64,000 nt of DNA from an uncultured Verrucomicrobiae bacterium (GCA_963719075.1 CAVRAN010000003.1:408659-472658); one strand, 5' to 3'; positions 2,273-52,012 are shown, counted from the stretch's first letter. Numbers and translations: made by a program. Notes: generated from the letters alone by a model not told the origin.

Positions 2273-3430
2273 ATGCTCTTAGCCATGAACAATAATATGC
2301 GACTCGTCGAAGTAGAAGTTGCGGTTTGCCTTGTGGCGGTGGCAATTGTTGCGTTCATTTTAATGGCTGCTAACGCCATCTGGAAATGCATGGTTTCCCC
2401 ATGGCCCGCTGCGATGTTATTGGTCACTTGTGTTTTGACAGGCTGTCAATCACCGCAGGTTATGTCGCAGAGTCAAACCGGCGCGGCACCAATGACACGA
2501 AACAATTGCTACAGTTTGCTCCATCAACTTCTGGACGAACAAAAGGACGTCAGCATCCTGCGCTTCTTCAAGCCTGAACAGGCTGATCTCAAAAATCTGG
2601 TAAAGAAAATCGCCACGACTTCCGGAACCGGAGCCACACTGTTGGAGGAATTTGCCAAGGACGATCCTTCAATCAAGCTGGATGACATCGGGCTTCCACC
2701 AGGAGAGGTAAGCACACGCGATGCGATTGCTTCCACCGAGGAGAAGAAATTATTGAGTAAGACCGGCAACACATTTGAACTGACCCTGCTTTTGACCCAG
2801 ACCGAGGCGTTAAACTATGCCTGGCATTTGGCAAAAGTCGCCGGCGAAAACGAGCCGCAACCCGAACGCGCCCGTGCGTTGGCAGGTTTAAGCGAGGATA
2901 TGCAGAACCTTTATAACGAAGTATTCGAGCTGTTGCTTTCAAAGACAAGATCATCAGCGACGAACTCAATCGCGGCCCAAGCAGCCCTGACTTCGACAAA
3001 CTCCGCTTCGACCAATCGGATTCTCATGATTGATCGCAGTTCCATGCCGATTGGCGCGGGCAAAGCCACTCTGATCATCGGGGCGCTCCAACGTGCGAAC
3101 GGCGTTTATTCGGGCGATTACAAAATTAAGGTGTTTCCCTATTTCTTCAAAAATGAAACGGGCAGGCTGGCCATTGTCGTTTCGGATAAGTCACTAGCGG
3201 AAATTAATCTGGGAAAAGTCGCCGCGATCATCGGAACCGCCACCACGAGCGGCAAAGGCGGCGCAAGCCGTCACATTGATGCAACGGCCACGCCGGTTGA
3301 CATCAATCGCGGAACGCTCAAGCTGTGGTTCACGGCGGGAAACAGGAATATGATCTTCGAGCCTGCCTATCACTTTGCCGAACAAGGGACGACAGTGGCA
3401 TTGGCACAGACGACTGAAACCAACCCTTGA
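2273..3430 (+). CDS. Hypothetical lipoprotein
   Basis: 385-aa ORF. The internal MLLVTCVLTGCQSP lipobox suggests the real start is the ATG at 2390 or 2414. No family was recognised. Confidence 0.5.
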   Translation: MLLAMNNNMRLVEVEVAVCLVAVAIVAFILMAANAIWKCMVSPWPAAMLLVTCVLTGCQSPQVMSQSQTGAAPMTRNNCYSLLHQLLDEQKDVSILRFFKPEQADLKNLVKKIATTSGTGATLLEEFAKDDPSIKLDDIGLPPGEVSTRDAIASTEEKKLLSKTGNTFELTLLLTQTEALNYAWHLAKVAGENEPQPERARALAGLSEDMQNLYNEVFELLLSKTRSSATNSIAAQAALTSTNSASTNRILMIDRSSMPIGAGKATLIIGALQRANGVYSGDYKIKVFPYFFKNETGRLAIVVSDKSLAEINLGKVAAIIGTATTSGKGGASRHIDATATPVDINRGTLKLWFTAGNRNMIFEPAYHFAEQGTTVALAQTTETNP

Positions 3431-3602
3431 ATTTTTTGTAAACGAATCACAGTTTCTTGAACCATCATTCAGCAAACGCCGCCGCATCATTTTTAACTCC
3501 TTAACCACCGTGCTACCGAGTCTGTGATAAAACAGCGGAACAAGGTAAATCCACAGGCATAGTTATTCCGTATTGTTTAAGCACACGACCCATTGGCGCT
3601 TA

Positions 3603-4562
3603 CTATCTGGAATTCGGAGTGACGCTATTCAAAAGAAGCGATGAAGGCGAACTTTGCGATGCTTTGGCTTGGGCGTTTGTGATGGCAATGACGGGCGACC
3701 ATTTAAGCCATTTCTTGTCCGCTTTTTCGTTGAGTGGAAAAGTGCTGTCGTTGGATACTAGCATTCCCGGCGACGGCGGCGTGGCAAAGGCGATTCCACC
3801 GATGACCAGCGATTTGAGGGTTTCCGCACTCATGCTGAATCCGGAAAATAACCCAAAGTGGGCACTAATGCCGCCGGCATTCCAGAATTTTGAATCCGTC
3901 CGCACCAGAGACTCAAAATTTGTCTCGATCAAAACATGAATATTGACCGCGGTTGAATCTTTCCCCAACACAAAATATCGCACCGAACCCACTTCCATGC
4001 CGCGATAATAAACCGGTGCGCCAACGGTCAATGAGCCGAGACTGGGTGTAGTCAAAATAATTTCCAGTTCACCTTCAGACGTTTCAAGAATGGGCGGCTC
4101 TTCCGCGCCAATGAATTTTTTTTGTTCCCCGCCGTTGCCCGGCTGCACTTGAATGTAGGGTCCCGATACAATCGTTTCCAAACCCTGCAACCCGCCCGCG
4201 CCTACTTCAGGACGCACGATCCAGAACACGGAGCCTTCGCGGGCCAGACTTTCAGCCGATTTGTCCAAACGCGCCTGCACTTCGACATATTTCGCTTCTT
4301 TGGCCAGTTGCACCGAAAGAACTTCGCCGACGCGCACACCACGATATCGAAGCGTGGTTTGATTGGCTTCAATTTCATTTCCGTTGTTGAACAGGATACT
4401 AATGACCGGTCCCGCTTGCCGAACATGTTTGAAAACGAGCCAGCCGCCGACGATTGCAGCCACCAGCGGCACAATCCAGACCATGGAAATCCGGGACGGC
4501 TTTTTTATTCTCGCCTCGGGCAAATCGCACGCTGGGGATTCATCCTTTTTTGTCGGGTTCAA
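3603..4562 (-). CDS. pqiB: MlaD/PqiB-family (MCE domain) intermembrane transport protein
   Basis: 319 aa with an N-terminal TM (MVWIVPLVAAIVGGWLVF) followed by MCE-like repeats (LRYRGVRVGEV.., VYYRGMEVGSV..). It overlaps the upstream pqiA-like gene by 23 nt. Confidence 0.8.
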   Translation of the reverse strand: MNPTKKDESPACDLPEARIKKPSRISMVWIVPLVAAIVGGWLVFKHVRQAGPVISILFNNGNEIEANQTTLRYRGVRVGEVLSVQLAKEAKYVEVQARLDKSAESLAREGSVFWIVRPEVGAGGLQGLETIVSGPYIQVQPGNGGEQKKFIGAEEPPILETSEGELEIILTTPSLGSLTVGAPVYYRGMEVGSVRYFVLGKDSTAVNIHVLIETNFESLVRTDSKFWNAGGISAHFGLFSGFSMSAETLKSLVIGGIAFATPPSPGMLVSNDSTFPLNEKADKKWLKWSPVIAITNAQAKASQSSPSSLLLNSVTPNSR

Positions 4563-5148
4563 TAATTTCCTCCTTCCAAATCAAGCGCGGGTCATAGCTC
4601 GAAGAAGCCAGGATCGTCAGGACGACGACGGACGCAAAAACGAAAATGCCCGGACCGGGAATCACCGTGGCGAATTTTCCGAACCGGATCAACGCCACCA
4701 TCACCGCCAGCAGAAAAACATCCAACATCGCCCACGGCCCAATCTTGTAAATTATCTTGTGAACGCGCGTGCGTAATTTTTGCCAGCGTTGTCCGCGATT
4801 CGAGACGAGGAAAACTAATCCGAGCAGTTTTAAAAGCGGAATAAGAATGCTCGCGGCAAAAACCAGCGTTGCCACCGCCCACATTCCATCACGATACAAA
4901 GCCCTCACGCTGCCCAAAACGGTATTTTGCGTATGACGCCCCATGTATTCCATGATCATGATGGGATAGATATTCGCCGGCACATACAGGCAAAGTGCCG
5001 CGAGCGCCAATGCCGCCGTTCGCGCGCGGCTGTTGGGATTGTCACGTCGGAGAATTCCCTCGCAGCGCGCGCATTCCGCCAGATGGCGCGGCGGCACGTC
5101 GCCCAGTTGCTGAACCAAACCGCAAGTTTCGCAGGCGATGACATTCAT
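4540..5148 (-). CDS. pqiA: Paraquat-inducible protein A family membrane protein (single-module, half-size)
   Basis: 202 aa. It has the N-terminal CxxC..CxxC zinc ribbon (CETCG..CARCEG) followed by TM helices typical of PqiA. It is paired with pqiB. Confidence 0.8.
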   Translation of the reverse strand: MNVIACETCGLVQQLGDVPPRHLAECARCEGILRRDNPNSRARTAALALAALCLYVPANIYPIMIMEYMGRHTQNTVLGSVRALYRDGMWAVATLVFAASILIPLLKLLGLVFLVSNRGQRWQKLRTRVHKIIYKIGPWAMLDVFLLAVMVALIRFGKFATVIPGPGIFVFASVVVLTILASSSYDPRLIWKEEIIEPDKKG

Positions 5149-5275: not shown

Positions 5276-6628
5276 TTACTGCTGCGCCTTGAGCTGAGCG
5301 TTTGCCGAGGAACCAGATTTTTCTTTCTCAAGGCGCTTTTCATCCGCTTCTCGCTTTTTTTCCTGCGCCAACTTTTGCTCTGGTGTCTGCACCGGTTGCG
5401 CTGGCTGCTTGACCACGGTACCTTGTTCAGTCTGTGGCTTCCGCTCCGGGTTAACTTCTGCCTGAACGGCGGGTTTGGGTGCCTTGTCTGGTTCCGCGCC
5501 TGGCTTGACTGGTTGACCCGCTGTCTTCACCACCTCGTCGGGTTTAGGTGCTGGCCTGAATTCTTCATTAGGCAGGCTTTTTTTCACTTCACCGGAAACA
5601 GTTTTTTCGTTTGACGTGACGACATTTGGTTCCTCGGCCTTGGGTTTCATCGGCAACGGTTCGGTCGGCTCGGCCATCGTCTCCTTCTTCTGAGCCGATT
5701 CTGCATTATTGAGCACCACTGGCTGGACTTTTTTCTCTGTCGTGGGTGCGTTTTTTCTGTGCGCGATGACCACGGCTGCTTCCTGCCGGGTTCGCAACCC
5801 TCTAGCTGCCACTACTTCGACTTTGCGCCCACTGGCCTGCGCGATGACCTCGGGACGTGGACCTTCATTGATCACCGTTTTGTTCACCACCTGGATTTTG
5901 GTGATATTAACCGTGTTATTAATGATGGTCGTATTGTTGACGATGACAGTTTGGTGGTGTTGAGGCTCCAACATTCGCCCTTCCTCCACGAAAACAAACG
6001 CGTGCGGGTCGATGGTTCCCTCTCGATATTCAAGACCCCCGTTTACTCCAATTCTCGCTTCCGGCGGCAAGGGTGCCCAACCGGCGTAACCTCCGCCTTC
6101 CCGCCAGGCAACCCAGGCCGGTGCCCACTGTGTCTGGGGAACCCAAACCCATCCGTTGTCCGGGTCCTGATACCAGCGTCCGTAATGACACGTCGCCCAG
6201 CCCCAGCGTTCGTCGCTGACCCAATACCAGCCGGCGTCCGTCCGTTGCCAATGGCCTTCGGTGTAAGGACGCCAATCCTGGTCAACACCAGCCGGCACCC
6301 AGCACCGTCCATACCCCTGTACTACAATCCAGCGCCCATACGCATTCAGCGGTTCGTAAAAGTCACTTACTGCATTAATCTCCAGAACCGCATCCGGTGC
6401 AGGTGCAGGTTCGACATATACCGGAGCTGGCTGAACATAGGCGGGTTGTTCGGTTACTACCACTGGCGCGGGCGCGGGCTGATAAACCTGCGCTGGTTGA
6501 GGTTGATAGACCGCCCGATCTTCAACCACACAGCCCGCCAGTAAAAGTGGGATGACCAAGAGTAAAACCGGTTTAAGTATTGTTTTTCGATTTAACATGG
6601 GAGGAAAATTACGACATGAGTTCGTCAT
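5276..6628 (-). CDS. Lipoprotein with Trp/Gly-rich WxxGxW-type repeats (DUF6600/BcpO-like) and a Pro/Lys/Glu-rich tail
   Basis: 450 aa with lipobox LLLAGC. The repeats are YGRWIVVQGYGRCWVP, GHWQRTDAGWYWVSDERWGWATCHYGRWY and GWVWVP. The C-terminal third is low-complexity (P/K/E/A). The family name is from memory. Confidence 0.5.
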   Translation of the reverse strand: MTNSCRNFPPMLNRKTILKPVLLLVIPLLLAGCVVEDRAVYQPQPAQVYQPAPAPVVVTEQPAYVQPAPVYVEPAPAPDAVLEINAVSDFYEPLNAYGRWIVVQGYGRCWVPAGVDQDWRPYTEGHWQRTDAGWYWVSDERWGWATCHYGRWYQDPDNGWVWVPQTQWAPAWVAWREGGGYAGWAPLPPEARIGVNGGLEYREGTIDPHAFVFVEEGRMLEPQHHQTVIVNNTTIINNTVNITKIQVVNKTVINEGPRPEVIAQASGRKVEVVAARGLRTRQEAAVVIAHRKNAPTTEKKVQPVVLNNAESAQKKETMAEPTEPLPMKPKAEEPNVVTSNEKTVSGEVKKSLPNEEFRPAPKPDEVVKTAGQPVKPGAEPDKAPKPAVQAEVNPERKPQTEQGTVVKQPAQPVQTPEQKLAQEKKREADEKRLEKEKSGSSANAQLKAQQ

Positions 6629-6806: not shown

Positions 6807-7100
6807 GTGTGGGCGTGGATGAAACGGCGTGGTTTCTCGGCTTGGGGAATGTTGTCGGCGGGCCATTATCCCATTGTGATGTTCGGGCCCGTGCATCTGC
6901 CGTCGATTCTTCCAGCCAACCCAATGCTATACGCCATATTGCGCAAAACCCATACGATACTGGCATATCTCCTATTCGTAACTTTTCTCTTCCACCTCGG
7001 CACTGTGTTGTTCCACACGCTCATCGTTCGCGACCGGCTGCTGAACCGCATGGCTCTGTGGCCAGTTCGCTCCCGCAATGTAAAAGTCGAAAAGAATTGA
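6807..7100 (+). pseudogene. Cytochrome b561-family remnant (C-terminal half only)
   Basis: The 97-aa ORF ends with the b561 C-terminal pattern ..LRKTHTILAYLLFVTFLFHLGTVLFHTLIVRDRLLNRM. The two N-terminal helices are absent, and an in-frame TAA lies at 6795-6797. Confidence 0.5.
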
Positions 7101-41627: not shown

Positions 41628-43001
41628 TCATGCGTTGGCGGTAATTCGCAGCGGGACGACGTTGCCAGCCTGCTTGGGCGGCATGATGGAGAACCAAGCT
41701 TTTGCCTCGGCATCGGTCGCCAAGGCGCGGTAGTTGGAAAATATAACCTGTGGTGAATTGCCACATTCCAGCGCCACGGCAGGCACGTCTTTGAGCACAG
41801 CCACGCGATAGGAAATATAAGAGTGGCGGAACCCGTTGCGCTTCCACGACACCTTGGCCCGTGCCGCCGCGCGCTCAAAACGGTCGCCCAAGGCGTTACC
41901 GACATTTTCGGCCTTTTCATCGCAGGGATTCATCAAGCCGAACCGCTTGGCATACGGAGTCAGCCACACGGCGAGATTGTCACTAATTGGCACCAACCGG
42001 CGGGCGGCCGTCTTGGCGTTTTCCGCGCTCACAACAATCAATTTTTCAGACAGCCGCACATCTCGCCAGTCCAGTCGTGAAACTTCTGACAATCGCAAAC
42101 CGGCAAACGCGGCAATGGCCAGCGCCGGGACAATGGCCGCGTCCGCTGCCGCGAGGATGGCGCGCATTTCATCCGGCGGGTAGATGCCGATGGGCGCGGG
42201 CACTTTCCGGGGCGTGGAAATTTCTGAAAGTTCAAGGGCAAGTTCAGCGGACACATATTTCTGGCGGCGGGCGAAGTTGAACAGGCTCACGATCTGCCGG
42301 AGCATATTTTCCTTGGTGCGCGCGGCGGTGTCCTTTTTCGTCTTTTGTTTTTTCAATCCGTAAATCCATTGTTGAACCAGCGGCGCGCTGACGGCGATCA
42401 TGGGCAGCACAAACGCTTTGGAGAATTGACCGAGGCGAAATTGAAGGTCGTGGATATGCACCGCCGAACAACCGGCGCTCCGCCGATCAGCGATGAATTC
42501 CGTGACGACTTCGGCGACAGTTTTGCGCGGCATGTTGGACGGATGCTTCTGTTTGTAGAACTGCATCGCTTCCGTGAGGGTCACACCCGGTAACAGACTC
42601 GCGCGGGCAGTGGTGTAGTCACGCACGATTTCCACCAGCCGGGCGGCACTGGCGTTGCCGATGCCTTCGTTCTTGGCCAGCAACGCGAGGGCTTGTTCGA
42701 GGGATACGCGATCTGCGGCGCTCAACGCCGCCGCTCCGAGCGCACCCTGTGCTTTCTGCTCCGCGACGCACAGCGCCTCGGCATTGGCCTGGGCGAAGTC
42801 CATGAAGCGGCGAAGCTGACGCTTTCCGCCCGCGTAGTAACTCAACAAAAAAGTCGGAAAATTTTTACCGCGAACATGACCGTTATTTTTGTAAATTTTC
42901 ACCGCGACATCGCCATTGCGGACAACGTGCGGCCAAGTTTTCGGCAGACGAGCGGGCTTTGATTTCGGCAAAATCAAATCAGCAGAAAAACCATTCTTCA
43001 T
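41628..43001 (-). CDS. Tyrosine-type site-specific recombinase (island integrase)
   Basis: 457 aa. The C-terminal catalytic domain carries GLRLSEVSRLDWRDV, NGFRHSYISY and VIFSNYRAL (R..HxxR..Y pattern). The start codon is ~60 nt from the tRNA 3' end. Confidence 0.9.
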   Translation of the reverse strand: MKNGFSADLILPKSKPARLPKTWPHVVRNGDVAVKIYKNNGHVRGKNFPTFLLSYYAGGKRQLRRFMDFAQANAEALCVAEQKAQGALGAAALSAADRVSLEQALALLAKNEGIGNASAARLVEIVRDYTTARASLLPGVTLTEAMQFYKQKHPSNMPRKTVAEVVTEFIADRRSAGCSAVHIHDLQFRLGQFSKAFVLPMIAVSAPLVQQWIYGLKKQKTKKDTAARTKENMLRQIVSLFNFARRQKYVSAELALELSEISTPRKVPAPIGIYPPDEMRAILAAADAAIVPALAIAAFAGLRLSEVSRLDWRDVRLSEKLIVVSAENAKTAARRLVPISDNLAVWLTPYAKRFGLMNPCDEKAENVGNALGDRFERAAARAKVSWKRNGFRHSYISYRVAVLKDVPAVALECGNSPQVIFSNYRALATDAEAKAWFSIMPPKQAGNVVPLRITANA

Positions 43002-43062: not shown

Positions 43063-43087
43063 GATGGTGCCGACGGAGGGGGTCGAA
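43063..43087. repeat. Proximal att direct repeat (within the tRNA-Leu 3' end)
   Basis: Identical to 1892-1916. It covers the tRNA T-loop through CCA plus 2 nt. Confidence 0.85.
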
Positions 43088-43151
43088 CCCACACATCTGT
43101 GAAGATACTAGATTTTGAGTCTAGCGCGTCTGCCAATTCCGCCACATCGGC
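43065..43151 (-). tRNA. tRNA-Leu (anticodon CAA), CCA-encoded, long variable arm
   Basis: Minus-strand sequence: GCCGATGTGGCGGAATTGGCAGACGCGCTAGACTCAAAATCTAGTATCTTCACAGATGTGTGGGTTCGACCCCCTCCGTCGGCACCA. The acceptor stem has 7 bp (one G-U). The anticodon stem is CTAGA/TCTAG with loop CTCAAAA. The T-loop is TTCGACC, with one U-U mismatch in the T stem. Confidence 0.85.
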
Positions 43152-48485: not shown

Positions 48486-49685
48486 ATGGAAAAAACTTTT
48501 GACTACATCGAATCTGTAATCGCCGACACCCGCAAAGGCAAAATGGTCATCGTCGTGGACGACGCCGACCGCGAAAATGAAGGTGATTTGATTCTCGCCG
48601 CGCAGCATGTCACGCCTGCCGCCGTCAATTTCATGGCCAAGTTCGGGCGTGGTTTGATTTGCGTCGCCACAAATCCCGAACGCCTCCAGCAACTCGGCAT
48701 CGAGCGCATGGTCCGCCAGAACCGCGAAAGTTTCCGTACCGATTTTCAAGTGAGCGTGGACGCCGCGCGCGGAATCACCACCGGAATTTCCGCCGCCGAC
48801 CGCGCCAAGACGATTCAAATCATGGCCGACCCGACCGCCGTGCCGGAAGATTTGGTCCAGCCCGGCCACGTTTTTCCGCTGCGCGCGCGACCCGGCGGAG
48901 TTTTGCAACGCGCCGGCCACACCGAAGCCGCCGTGGATTTGGCCACGCTCGCCGATTGCCGTCCCATCGGCGTGCTGTGTGAAATTTTGAACGACGACGG
49001 CACGATGGCGCGCCTGCCACAGCTTTTGAAATTCGCCAAAAAGCACAAACTAAAAATCTGCACGATTGAAGATTTGATCCATTTCCGCCGCACGCGCGAA
49101 AAATTGGTCGAGCAGATTGAAGTCGTGAAGCTGCCCACAGATTACGGCGAATTTGATTTGCATTTATATCGCTCGAAGATTGACGGCCAGCATCACCTCG
49201 CGCTCGTACGCGGTGAAATTGCCGGCGCGAAAAATGTCCTCGTGCGCGTCCATAGCGAATGTCTGACTGGCGACGTCTTCGGTTCGCGCCGCTGCGATTG
49301 CGGGCCGCAACTGCATCAGGCGATGAAGCAAGTTTCAGAAGCCGGGCGCGGCGTGATTCTTTATATGCGGCAGGAAGGTCGCGGCATCGGCCTCGCACCG
49401 AAGATTCAGGCTTATAAATTGCAGGAGCAAGGGTTGGACACGGTCGAGGCGAATGAAAAACTCGGCTACGGGATGGATTTGCGCGAATACGGCCTCGGCG
49501 CGCAAATCCTCGTTGACCTCGGCCTGAAAACCATCCGGCTGCTGACGAACAATCCGAAAAAAGTCGTCGGGCTGGAAGGCTACGGCCTGAAGATCACCGA
49601 GCAGGTGCCGATCAAAATAAAATCCAATCCGCACAACGAACGGTATTTGAAAACGAAGCGCGAGAAATTGGGCCATCTTCTATGA
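48486..49685 (+). CDS. ribBA: Bifunctional 3,4-dihydroxy-2-butanone-4-phosphate synthase / GTP cyclohydrolase II
   Basis: DDADRENEGDLI is the DHBPS motif. RVHSECLTGDVFGSRRCDCGPQL is the GCH-II zinc site. The ATG at 48486 (MEKTFDYIE) is the preferred start. Confidence 0.92.
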   Translation: MEKTFDYIESVIADTRKGKMVIVVDDADRENEGDLILAAQHVTPAAVNFMAKFGRGLICVATNPERLQQLGIERMVRQNRESFRTDFQVSVDAARGITTGISAADRAKTIQIMADPTAVPEDLVQPGHVFPLRARPGGVLQRAGHTEAAVDLATLADCRPIGVLCEILNDDGTMARLPQLLKFAKKHKLKICTIEDLIHFRRTREKLVEQIEVVKLPTDYGEFDLHLYRSKIDGQHHLALVRGEIAGAKNVLVRVHSECLTGDVFGSRRCDCGPQLHQAMKQVSEAGRGVILYMRQEGRGIGLAPKIQAYKLQEQGLDTVEANEKLGYGMDLREYGLGAQILVDLGLKTIRLLTNNPKKVVGLEGYGLKITEQVPIKIKSNPHNERYLKTKREKLGHLL

Positions 49686-50074
49686 ACTTAAATCAGCATA
49701 ATAAATTTGTAAGGTTTATTTTGCGAACGATAGATGTTTTGGTTTCTTTTCGATCTGGGCGGATTGTTCGTTGGGACGAAGAACCGTTTCAGAAATCAAG
49801 TGAAGCACAAAAGCGTGTCGGTGGATTATTTATGGCGCTTTTCCCGATTTGTTTTTTGATTTTTCTAAAGAATGCCAAGCTTGTTGATTCTTGGGTGGAT
49901 TCAATACTGCGTAGTTCTGTTGCGTGGCTTTATCTTGGTTTTATCGGTGGAGTTTGTCTTGCTCTTCTTATCGCTTTCAAGGTTGCGCCGAAAATACCAT
50001 TGATTGTTTCAGTTCCAATTGCTTTTGTGGCTTGGCCGGTCTTTCTATGGTTTGCTTGGACGCGTCCATTTTGA
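49682..50074 (+). CDS. Hypothetical membrane protein (AT-rich orphan)
   Basis: 130 aa with 3 hydrophobic helices. The ATG overlaps the ribBA stop (ATGA). Confidence 0.4.
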   Translation: MNLNQHNKFVRFILRTIDVLVSFRSGRIVRWDEEPFQKSSEAQKRVGGLFMALFPICFLIFLKNAKLVDSWVDSILRSSVAWLYLGFIGGVCLALLIAFKVAPKIPLIVSVPIAFVAWPVFLWFAWTRPF

Positions 50075-50077
50075 ATC

Positions 50078-50152
50078 ATGTTAAAACCCATCAAAACCAA
50101 AACGGCACGCGCCAGCGGCGGCACATTCGCCATCGTCGCGTCGCGCACTTGA
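50078..50152 (+). pseudogene. ribH 5' fragment, copy A
   Basis: MLKPIKTKTARASGGTFAIVASRT* compares with intact RibH MLKTVSKLKLKTGGGTFAIVASRYNAEF. The core CGGCGGCACnTTCGCCATCGTCGCsTCGCGC lies at 50116-50146. Confidence 0.65.
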
Positions 50153-50183
50153 CGGCAGTCCAAAAACAGTCCATTTTTAGACC

Positions 50184-50456
50184 ATGAAAGTTTTAAGCGT
50201 CAGCAACGCCAAATCCAAACTTGGCCGCGTGATTGACCGGGTCATCAAAACGCGCGAGCCGGTTGTCATCCCGCGCGGCGTCAATCATGTGATGATCGCG
50301 CCGTATCACCTGCCCACGCCGGATGAAATGGAACTGGCGCGCATTGGCCGGGAAATGGATCAAGGCCGCGAACCTGTCGAGGAAAATGATGAATTGACGG
50401 AAGCGATCCAGTCGGAAATCCGCAAATATCGCGCTGAAAAACGCCGCCGCAAATGA
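50184..50456 (+). CDS. Phd/YefM-type antitoxin
   Basis: 90 aa. MKVLSVSNAKSKLGRVIDRVIKTREPVVIPRG.. fits the family. There is a 4-nt overlap with the PIN toxin gene. Confidence 0.75.
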   Translation: MKVLSVSNAKSKLGRVIDRVIKTREPVVIPRGVNHVMIAPYHLPTPDEMELARIGREMDQGREPVEENDELTEAIQSEIRKYRAEKRRRK

Positions 50457-50866
50457 CGGTTGTTTTTGACACGAATGTTTTCGTTTCCGCCGCCGCTTCG
50501 CGGAAAGGTTCTTCGTGGCAGTGCTTTGTGTTGCTGGCAAGACGGGAATTCCAACTGGCCGTCACAAAAGAAATTCTGGACGAATACGAAACCATCGCCG
50601 AACGCTTTTCGCGCAAACCCGGAAAACATTGCGGAATGAAATGGCGTCCGATCTTTCATTGGTTGCAGGACAGCGCAGGATTTTATGAACCCGCGCCGCT
50701 GGGCAAACAGCGCAGCCGCGATGCGGACGATGATATTTTTCTGGCTTGCGCGCTGGCAGGCGGCGCAAAAATAATCGTTTCAAAAGACAACGACTTGCTC
50801 GACTTGGGGAAACCGTTCGGCGTCGAGATTTTGAAGCCAGCGACTTTTGTCGCGCGTTTCAAATAA
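50453..50866 (+). CDS. PIN-domain toxin (TA-system PIN family)
   Basis: VVFDTNVFVSAA.. and ..DDDIFLACALAGGAKIIVSKDNDLLDL carry the acidic PIN residues. Confidence 0.85.
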   Translation: MTVVFDTNVFVSAAASRKGSSWQCFVLLARREFQLAVTKEILDEYETIAERFSRKPGKHCGMKWRPIFHWLQDSAGFYEPAPLGKQRSRDADDDIFLACALAGGAKIIVSKDNDLLDLGKPFGVEILKPATFVARFK

Positions 50867-50893
50867 ATTCCATTTAATCTGCAATTGAAAATT

Positions 50894-50989
50894 GTGTTGC
50901 GCAAAAATCCAAAACTGAAATTGAAGTCCGGCGGCGGCACGTTCGCCATCGTCGCGTCGCGCTTTTGTCTTGAAACCAGAAGCGCGTAG
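50894..50989 (+). pseudogene. ribH 5' fragment, copy B
   Basis: (V)LRKNPKLKLKSGGGTFAIVASRFCLETRSA*. The core lies at 50932-50962, and the upstream KLKLK codons also resemble intact ribH. Confidence 0.65.
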
Positions 50990-50997
50990 CGTATAAT
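50970..50997 (+). promoter_or_regulatory. Near-consensus sigma-70 promoter for TA cassette 2 (predicts a leaderless or near-leaderless mRNA)
   Basis: TTGAAA (50970-50975), a 16-nt spacer, then TATAAT (50992-50997). The antitoxin ATG lies at 51004, only 6 nt after the -10 box. Confidence 0.5.
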
Positions 50998-51003
50998 GAG
51001 CGT

Positions 51004-51276
51004 ATGAAGACTTTAACAATTACGGAAGGGCGCGGGCGGTTGGGACATTGGCTCAAAAAAGCGACCGAAGGTGAAGACGTGGGTTTTGTTTTTGAAGGAA
51101 AGATTGTCGCGCTGCGTCCGGTGGAAGTTTATTCCGGTGACTACGCCTTGCAGGAATACGGACTGACGCCAAAGGAAATGGCCAAGGCGGAGCAGCGCAT
51201 CCGCGCGGAGATAAAGGCTGCTCGCAAACGCGGTGAAGTCACCAAGTTCACGGGGAGTCTCAATGATTTCCGTTGA
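51004..51276 (+). CDS. Phd/YefM-like antitoxin
   Basis: 90 aa. MKTLTITEGRGRLGHWLKKATEGEDVGFVFEGKIVALRPVEV.. fits the family. It overlaps the downstream toxin ORF. Confidence 0.6.
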   Translation: MKTLTITEGRGRLGHWLKKATEGEDVGFVFEGKIVALRPVEVYSGDYALQEYGLTPKEMAKAEQRIRAEIKAARKRGEVTKFTGSLNDFR

Positions 51277-51538
51277 ACTGACGAAACGATTCAAGAAAAT
51301 CGTGCGTGAAGCCAAACGCGAAGCAGAAGTTTCCGCGACGCTCAAATTGGTGGTTGAAGGTTTTGGAAAGCCGCATCTTCATTCCGGCCTGTCCATCCGC
51401 AAGCTGGGCAAACGGCTTTACGAGTGCCGCACCAACTTGGCCTGGCGACTGGTTTTCGAGGCGAACAAAAGTGTTTTGCTTTTCGATTTTGCGGGTGACC
51501 ATGACGAAGTGCGGAATTATCTGCGCGGCAAACGCTGA
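51263..51538 (+). CDS. RelE/ParE-superfamily toxin (tentative)
   Basis: From the ATG at 51263 the product is MISVELTKRFKKIV..HLHSGLSIRKLGKRLYECRTNLAWRLVFEANKSVLLFDFAGDHDEVRNYL. This fits the RelE/ParE-like pattern (..KL.g...E.R....wR..F......l....G.H.ev..yl). Confidence 0.55.
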   Translation: MISVELTKRFKKIVREAKREAEVSATLKLVVEGFGKPHLHSGLSIRKLGKRLYECRTNLAWRLVFEANKSVLLFDFAGDHDEVRNYLRGKR

Positions 51539-51547
51539 AATTTTCCG

Positions 51548-52012
51548 ATGCTAAAAACAGTTTCAAAATTAAAATTGAAAACCGGCGGCGGCACCTTCGC
51601 CATCGTCGCCTCGCGCTACAACGCGGAGTTTGTGGACGCGATGCTGCACGCGGCGCGCGAGGAATTGCTGCGCGCCCGGGCGCACGTCCGCATCGTGCGC
51701 GTGCCGGGCGCGTTTGAGATTCCGGCGACGGCGGCGCGGCTGGCGCAACCGAAACGTTACGCGGCCATCATCTGCCTCGGCGTCATTTTTCAGGGCGAGA
51801 CGAGCCACGCGCAGCACATCGGCTGGGGCGTGACGCACGCGCTGGCGCAAATCCAGGTGCTGCAAAAAATCCCCGTCATCCACGGCGTGTTCGTTTTTGA
51901 AAAAGTGAAGCACGCGAAGGTTCGCTGCCTCGGCAAGAAACACAATCGCGGCACGGAAGCGGCGCAGACGGCTTTGGAAATGGCGCGGGTGATGAGAAAT
52001 TTGCGCAGTTGA
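51548..52012 (+). CDS. ribH: 6,7-dimethyl-8-ribityllumazine synthase
   Basis: 154 aa. FAIVASRYNAEFVDAML..VPGAFEIP..ICLGVIFQGETSHAQHI is the canonical RibH pattern. Confidence 0.92.
   Translation: MLKTVSKLKLKTGGGTFAIVASRYNAEFVDAMLHAAREELLRARAHVRIVRVPGAFEIPATAARLAQPKRYAAIICLGVIFQGETSHAQHIGWGVTHALAQIQVLQKIPVIHGVFVFEKVKHAKVRCLGKKHNRGTEAAQTALEMARVMRNLRS

Follow-up and report, generated by a model that had tools for sequence, protein, structure and literature searches.

In a stretch of 64,000 nucleotides from an uncultured Verrucomicrobiae bacterium (GCA_963719075.1, CAVRAN010000003.1:408659-472658; hereafter the window), the 5' end of the lumazine synthase gene ribH occurs three times in direct orientation downstream of ribBA, and each of the two intervals between copies holds a small predicted toxin-antitoxin (TA) operon. 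Comparison with relatives among soil Verrucomicrobia points to the start of the essential ribH as a recurrent docking site for selfish cassettes and strongly supports serial, independent insertion. We read the locus as an array of small selfish addiction cassettes, each with promoter, antitoxin and toxin, that are stacked at the ribH start and enter via host homologous recombination, a reading to which we give an even chance.

A first-pass annotation, made from the sequence of the window alone, had described the three ribH 5' copies, and re-reading of the sequence and its open reading frames (ORFs) confirmed their positions and translations (relics A and B and the live third copy, C; Table 1). 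The 31-nt core that the copies were said to share, CGGCGGCACNTTCGCCATCGTCGCSTCGCGC, is present at 50116, 50932 and 51586 with 0 mismatches and nowhere else in the 64 kb; 100 shuffles gave 0 matches versus the 3 observed. The repeat family has a length of 54 nt, with 89% identity between copy B and ribH and 67% between copies A and B, which share only about 31 nt. In an alignment of all three, homology starts ~10–15 nt 5' of the start codon and ends at TCGCGC(T), with none beyond. The abrupt stop claimed directly after TCGCGC is therefore right as to the break and one base early, since the following T is still common to copy B and ribH. In copy B the homologous start codon is the GTG at 50894; the TTG at 50885 merely opens the ORF. 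A search of the window for other long direct repeats found none besides the ribH 5' family. The identical cassette 2 antitoxin occurs on 11 contigs, drawn from assemblies of JGI, ENA and Logan, and six contigs have the identical RibBA, always with the same gene order; every contig carrying either of these sequences has the same array, with no strain-level polymorphism. Altogether the array is found in at least 12 independent metagenome contigs or assemblies and is therefore no assembly artefact.

A scan of genome collections with RibH gave 59 loci from relatives, which are labelled here by L and a number. All appear to come from Verrucomicrobiota of Limisphaerales/Pedosphaerales type, whatever their record titles. 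Several (L005, L009, L010, L014, L015, L035, L044 and others) were deposited as 'uncultured Bifidobacteriaceae', 'Candidatus Methylomirabilota' or 'Sulfotelmatobacter' and clearly belong to the same Verrucomicrobiota clade; such names are probably labelling or binning errors. The ribBA–ribH junction was surveyed in 38 species-level relatives with both genes on one stretch. The site is empty in 15 of them, with a gap of <150 nt and a single ribH start, and the other 23 carry inserts of 321–3078 nt, 10 of which keep one to three extra ribH 5' fragments detectable with a nucleotide profile. Further arrays were recovered from metagenomes (L105, L110, L137, L146 and the three-copy L169) by scanning for the core followed by a non-ribH base, a pattern that yielded ~8 useful loci, most of its 120 matches being chance hits in GC-rich DNA. 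The comparison across relatives that the first-pass annotation had proposed was thus informative: zero, one, two or three cassettes lie at the same junction, with differing cargo. Besides Phd-PIN and the RelE-like pair, this cargo comprises two HicB-HicA pairs, a pair of 65-aa and 84-aa proteins, an FHA/response-regulator/DUF4388 gene, a 2.9-kb cytochrome-c cluster, a GNAT acetyltransferase and several unknown genes. Cassettes measure 0.5–3 kb, and in the occupied gaps examined every real cargo gene is on the same strand as ribH. L001, whose RibH body and downstream gene are 97% and 96% identical to those of the window, nevertheless carries HicBA instead of the PhdPIN and RelE-like cassettes.

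Individual cassettes are shared among these loci. The RelE-like cassette is common to the window, L059, L072, L105 and L169, followed by a further cassette in L059 and preceded by HicBA and the FHA gene in L169; the shared homology spans from just past the core to the next start codon. A 556-nt HicBA cassette is found in L001, L014, L045, L053 and L169, and the PhdPIN cassette in the window, L137 and L146. Some of these cassettes are also found at the ribBA–ribH junction in the absence of a relic (HicBA in L026 and L042; PhdPIN in L199). As had been proposed from the window, these comparisons show that some cassettes bring a ribH start of their own to replace the old one. Behind PhdPIN lies the start MLRKNPK..KLK, which is the relic (copy B) in the window and the live ribH start in L146, and the RelE-like cassette carries the start ATGCTnAAAACnGT in the window, L169 and L105. 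The unusual N-terminus of relic B is the live start beside PhdPIN in L146, and relic B is the ribH start brought in by cassette 1.

The ribH copies that flank the cassettes are mosaic. Around the RelE-like cassette, the right-hand copy resembles the left-hand copy beyond about +16. Flanking copies share lineage-unique sequence from +16 to +48, both in the window (B versus C) and in L169 (fragment 2 versus ribH), and 0 of 86 copies from other genomes are as similar. The 69-mer of the A type is 95–100% identical, as relic or as live ribH start, in ten other genomes (including L003, L008, L011, L025, L029, L034, L053, L169 and L181), whose ribBA DNA is only 79–90% identical to that of the window. 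The body of RibH is also discordant with its flanks: RibBA is 92% and RibH 63% identical to the window in L059, and the corresponding values in L053 are 89% and 62%. Collectively, mosaic copies, the homogenised 69-mer and the discordant RibH body argue for frequent homologous exchange at the locus, and the sequences suggest that exchange has extended to whole ribH alleles. RibH falls into two types, ~60–63% and ≥75% identical to the window (L042–L055 and L059 versus L001–L034), a division that does not track how similar the adjoining ribBA, cupredoxin-like and ctaA/ctaB genes are.

Cassette 1 fits a type II TA layout as judged from its genes, with a PIN-domain toxin behind a small putative antitoxin gene that overlaps it by 4 nt. 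Of its earlier designation as Phd-PIN, the PIN_3 half is firm (the toxin has 586 relatives in the database), and the Phd half is a weak match: the Phd/YefM hit scores 27.5 bits versus a Pfam cut-off of 29.8 and covers the N-terminal 31 residues only. The cassette 1 leader recurs in conserved form with PhdPIN in L137, L146, L199, L200 and L201, and its palindrome is likely an operator. A promoter scan found no consensus -10 for cassette 1 despite its -35-like TTGACG. The statement that each cassette opens with a -35-like hexamer and a promoter consequently applies in full to cassette 2, which, from the scan, is alone in having a strong sigma-70-type promoter; this lies directly 3' of copy B and is conserved in L059, L072, L105 and L169.

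Cassette 2 had been called Phd-like/RelE-like. Pfam offered only a non-significant YafQ match for its toxin (E 0.085). An AlphaFold (AF2) model of the protein (predicted local distance difference test score, pLDDT, 80.5) returned HP0892, RelE, YafQ and YoeB as top Foldseek hits, with probability 1.0 and TM scores of 0.56–0.64, and the model thereby bears out the RelE-like part of the name; there are 595 relatives, mostly ~80% identical. Neither Pfam nor a profile search of the PDB nor hhalign gave a Phd/YefM identity for the antitoxin, the hhalign probability versus the Phd-like protein of cassette 1 being 1%. The small gene is read as an antitoxin because its position and its 14-nt overlap with the toxin gene fit, and the pair has the layout of a type II TA system of the RelE/ParE superfamily, a predicted fold-matched toxin behind a small overlapping gene. 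The RelE-like cassette always ends AAATTTTCC(G/C)ATGCTnAAAACnGT, encoding MLKTV or MLKSI.

Relic/cassette junctions span +57 to +75 and are mostly at +70 to +72, and most relics end within ~5 nt of the break seen in the window. The break follows TCGCGC T in the PhdPIN, RelE-like and L011-type cassettes and in L110, TCGCGC TA in L053 and L004, and TCGC(G/A)C TACAA in front of HicBA leaders; it lies at +57 to +60 in the FHA cassette, L046 and L005. Serial, site-specific insertion had been put forward for the window. The serial part is strongly supported, given unrelated cassettes and zero to three of them per relative; 'site-specific' is too strong for breaks spread over this interval. A comparison of cassette left ends gave no common site. 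Single-stranded DNA folds of the three window junctions on both strands were no better than shuffles (z -0.27 to +0.29), with no attC-like hairpin. By eye, and with no formal scan, the sequence TCATGTTAAAA at the ribH start is reminiscent of one XerD arm of E. coli, with no inverted partner arm present. Cassette borders carry recurring short elements, among them a GC-rich hairpin GGGAGGGACGGCGTGTCGCCGTCCC and a motif AAATTATTCGTGTCCATYTGTG...TTCGTGGTTAA, at L072 ~3640–3700 and ~4330–4400, at L201 ~3060–3130 and in the cassette tails or leaders of L046, L004, L010, L015 and L053; these may be repetitive extragenic palindromic (REP)-like elements or terminators.

The same cassette families are found at the ends of other genes. 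In L073, the last 156 nt of uvrD are present twice (3509–3664 and 4295–4450), on either side of a homologue of the RelE-like pair; the two copies are 97% identical and differ at five positions, all third codon positions. In L008, another TA pair lies between two ribBA 3' ends (6165–6290 and 6857–6962; 105 nt), and 6 of the 8 differing codons are synonymous. PhdPIN is followed by a 66-nt relic of the ribBA 3' end in L201 and L202 (~3925–3990), and the same TA families occur in intergenic DNA without duplication in L069–L071 and L200. The TA genes are therefore not tied to ribH. Rather, the recurring feature is a cassette enclosed by the duplicated end of a gene, with the duplication reaching precisely to the target's start or stop. 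A perfect 127-nt repeat in L073 was discarded as a scaffolding artefact flanking a run of 100 N (4661–4760), distinct from a gene-end duplication.

Under the reading we favour, each insertion would strand the previous ribH start (codons 1–23) upstream as a relic and place the working start directly behind the toxin gene; because the working start would lie behind the newest toxin, the cassette nearest ribH would be the youngest. The order of insertion in the window would then be a 130-aa predicted membrane ORF downstream of ribBA (ORF130), the Phd-PIN pair and finally the RelE-like pair. Most likely ribH would be expressed from one or more cassette promoters or by read-through from ribBA, implying co-transcription, which would explain why all cargo is co-oriented with ribH. 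Cassettes would enter, leave and exchange via host homologous recombination, with the 70–90-nt flanking ribH segment as portable homology, by Campbell-type or ends-in integration and subsequent gene conversion between copies. The incoming cassette, either excised as a loop from a donor array or acquired as a DNA fragment, would bring a single ribH segment; recombination of this segment with the resident ribH start would leave a ribH copy on each side of the cassette, and gap repair together with gene conversion would mix donor and recipient sequence. Host recombination is favoured because the copies are mosaic, the 69-mer is horizontally homogenised, the ribH body is discordant, the gaps lack a recombinase and the differences between duplicated ends are almost exclusively synonymous. 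A more specific version, which we offer tentatively and lean against, holds that the first 70–90 nt of ribH are a portable docking sequence: recombinase-free cassettes would carry a copy of the start, overwrite that of the host, put ribH under a cassette promoter and stack in the manner of an integron without an integrase, with the same logic at the uvrD and ribBA 3' ends. Overwriting of the host's own gene start would account for a 69-mer so much better conserved than the DNA elsewhere.

Several observations weigh against entry by host recombination. Thirteen occupied sites have no detectable relic. Cassette DNA is only 75–82% identical between genomes and all contigs of the window's own population have the same array, so that nothing points directly to recent movement. 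The near-identical flanks of the window and L169 are not what a single plain Campbell crossover would yield; they require later gene conversion or gap repair. At least eight different cassette leaders join the relic within one 20-nt stretch (+57 to +75), and homologous recombination alone does not explain such clustering of independent founding junctions.

That clustering is what a dedicated enzyme would produce. A tyrosine or serine site-specific recombinase encoded elsewhere might recognise the ribH core and integrate circular, integrase-less cassettes near +70, much as integron cassettes or integrase-borrowing cis-mobilisable elements are integrated. The junctions of six or more unrelated leaders group tightly at TCGCGC T, and the 69-mer is conserved far above its flanks, as an attachment site under element-level selection would be; both speak for such an enzyme. 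So does a tyrosine recombinase gene in the window, which the first-pass annotation had missed in stating that no recombinase was nearby: a 457-aa ORF at 41628–43001 (-) whose match to Phage_integrase (E 2e-8) is partial and confined to the catalytic domain's first half. This ORF, however, directly adjoins a tRNA-Leu(CAA) gene (43065–43151, -) about 7 kb upstream of ribBA and resembles an ordinary tRNA-island integrase. A repeat of the tRNA-Leu end was sought within 10 kb and not found; from its position the gene appears to belong to a tRNA-Leu island. No homologue was detected in any fetched locus, and on both counts it was provisionally set aside as the responsible enzyme. ORFs of ≥140 aa in the 28 occupied gaps form 17 distinct clusters, none a recombinase or transposase, and no integrase-bearing element was seen at the ribH site. 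Junctions vary from +57 to +75 rather than falling on one base, the cassette left ends offer no common core-type site, the junctions lack attC-like folding (z about 0), and the uvrD and ribBA 3' duplications of differing lengths would require several different recombinases. A phage or plasmid attachment site carrying the ribH core was also considered; the five viral matches were all chance ones, and no viral contig had the core in a ribH-like context. A literature search gave no description of ribH as an attachment site or hotspot. We regard a recombinase acting in trans as unlikely. The absence of recombinases from the gaps, the lineage-unique flanks and the duplications at uvrD and ribBA point instead to a general process, either insertion with long duplication or homologous recombination.

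Duplicative insertion, in which double-strand-break repair or a replication template switch copies TA DNA into ribH and duplicates 30–90 nt of recipient sequence, would give directly the near-identical, lineage-specific copies that flank the RelE-like cassette in the window and L169. It also agrees with the variable lengths (~28, 51 and 69–90 nt at ribH; 66–156 nt elsewhere) and with the long variable duplications reported for restriction-modification modules. Target duplication cannot, however, supply the foreign ribH starts, start codon included, of the PhdPIN, RelE-like, FHA-response-regulator and cytochrome cassettes; the near-all-synonymous differences in uvrD and ribBA fit two alleles that evolved as working genes, not one decaying copy; and the duplications stop exactly at the stop codon of the target or near its start codon. 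We therefore judge it quite improbable. Local tandem duplication of one ancestral TA-ribH unit, or an assembly artefact, was named in the first-pass annotation as what would overturn its view. Three direct repeats at the similar spacings of 816 and 654 nt could suggest the former, but the cassettes are unrelated (PIN_3 versus RelE fold, antitoxins that hhalign does not align), relatives hold other cargo at the same junction, and independent assemblies agree on the array; we consider this explanation refuted.

The closest precedent is found among restriction-modification complexes, for which 'insertion with long target duplication' has been described, with ~30–420-bp duplications, no mobility gene and an unknown mechanism (PMC2853133, PMC3874152). 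Entry, amplification and release through the repeats were proposed by the authors (Nobusato et al. 2000; Furuta, Abe and Kobayashi 2010, PMC2853133). The ribH cassettes are likewise addiction modules without transposase or integrase, bounded by direct repeats that vary in length and are single-copy in empty-site relatives. Of the features used by Furuta 2010, they show an addiction module of <20 kb without a mobility gene and flanking repeats of >30 bp (here 54–90 nt) that are single-copy in empty sites (15 relatives). As to derivation of both repeats from the recipient, the window B/C and L169 pairs agree, and the carried foreign starts and the nearly all synonymous differences in L073 and L008 disagree. 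Unlike the restriction-modification case, the cargo consists of type II TA pairs with a small number of additional genes, uncultured Verrucomicrobiota are the hosts, the same essential-gene site has been hit repeatedly (up to three or four repeats, with breaks within ~20 nt), and some cassettes carry a foreign replacement gene start. In a literature search, long target duplication was not found described for TA pairs.

Other elements share single aspects of the locus. SXT/R391 integrative and conjugative elements insert in the 5' end of prfC and supply a new promoter and 5' coding sequence, so that the gene stays functional; SXT is ~100 kb long, encodes a tyrosine integrase of its own and has a short att core. 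Similarly, ribH cassettes supply a replacement gene start (PhdPIN, RelE-like) and a promoter (cassette 2), but the units are 0.5–0.8 kb, encode no recombinase and stack in tandem. Chromosomal integrons resemble the locus in their ordered, small, co-oriented cassettes with many TA pairs, in the repeated recombination-type sequence between them and in having the newest cassette at a fixed end. Unlike integrons, the ribH array lacks IntI, attI, an attC hairpin and the GTTRRRY core, and its repeats are a protein-coding gene start; it is flanked by ribBA and ORF130, and the only integrase is the one 7 kb off beside tRNA-Leu. Cis-mobilisable element (CIME)-type islands at tRNA genes and Xer-dependent pdif modules of Acinetobacter plasmids are integrase-less, often carry TA genes and use functions provided in trans. 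The ribH cassettes are also integrase-less and bounded by a repeated host target sequence; CIME and pdif modules have defined att or dif sites and known enzymes, whereas none was identified for the ribH cassettes.

The movement of chromosomal TA genes without transposases or integrases is poorly explained, and this locus provides a natural series of empty sites, single cassettes and arrays with sharp junctions in dozens of species. If host recombination via a carried gene end suffices, it would be a very simple route for the spread of selfish cargo, and one that defence genes could share. Odd mosaic starts and discordant housekeeping-gene phylogenies would find an explanation. An essential gene of a vitamin pathway would moreover be transcriptionally tied to addiction modules, and the cassettes may be very hard to lose.

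Table 1. Features of the ribBA–ribH region, numbered from the first nucleotide of the window.
Feature	Position	Strand	Evidence or remark
ribBA, bifunctional DHBP (3,4-dihydroxy-2-butanone 4-phosphate) synthase / GTP cyclohydrolase II, left anchor of site	48486..49685	+	Pfam DHBP_synthase 2.9e-86, GTP_cyclohydro2 7.5e-76; NCBIfam PRK09311
ORF130, 130-aa predicted membrane ORF	49682..50074	+	no Pfam/NCBIfam match
Relic A, ribH codons 1-23 (MLKPIKTKTARASGGTFAIVASR), then T and stop	50078..50152	+	repeat segment ~50067-50147
Cassette 1 leader, -35-like TTGACG (50149-50154) and imperfect palindrome GTCCAAAAA...TTTTTAGAC (50158-50182)	50149..50183	+	read from sequence
Cassette 1 antitoxin, Phd/YefM-like (weak match)	50184..50456	+	PF02604 E 2.6e-6
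Cassette 1 toxin, PIN_3 domain	50453..50866	+	PF13470 1.4e-19; TIGR00305 1.6e-13
Relic B, ribH start (V)LRKNPKLKLKSGGGTFAIVASR, GTG replacing ATG	50894..50963	+	listed ORF 50885-50989
Cassette 2 promoter, TTGAAA, 16 nt, TATAAT	50970..50997	+	11/12 consensus matches (promoter scan)
Cassette 2 antitoxin, no family assigned	51004..51276	+	position and 14-nt overlap with toxin gene
Cassette 2 toxin, RelE/YafQ/YoeB fold	51263..51538	+	predicted structure, Foldseek
Intact ribH (lumazine synthase); codons 1-23 (51548-51616) are the live third copy	51548..52012	+	PF00885 9e-39; TIGR00114

ORF130 (Table 1) has a start that overlaps the ribBA stop (ATGA) and ends 3 nt upstream of relic A. L005, L008 and L181 have a homologue at this position, and none of the 15 empty-site relatives has one; ORF130 is probably an earlier insert ('cassette 0'). 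By eye, ORF130 looks AT-richer than its surroundings. At the other end of the array, ribH starts 9 nt past the stop of the cassette 2 toxin, and a scan of the + strand from 51276 to 51548 found no terminator between the last toxin gene and ribH. An Rfam search of the repeat returned no RNA element and no flavin mononucleotide (FMN) riboswitch. Farther upstream, an ORF with a match to an IS1595-type transposase (E 1e-41) and another with a match to HipA_C (E 6.6e-46) lie within positions 1–36000 of the window.

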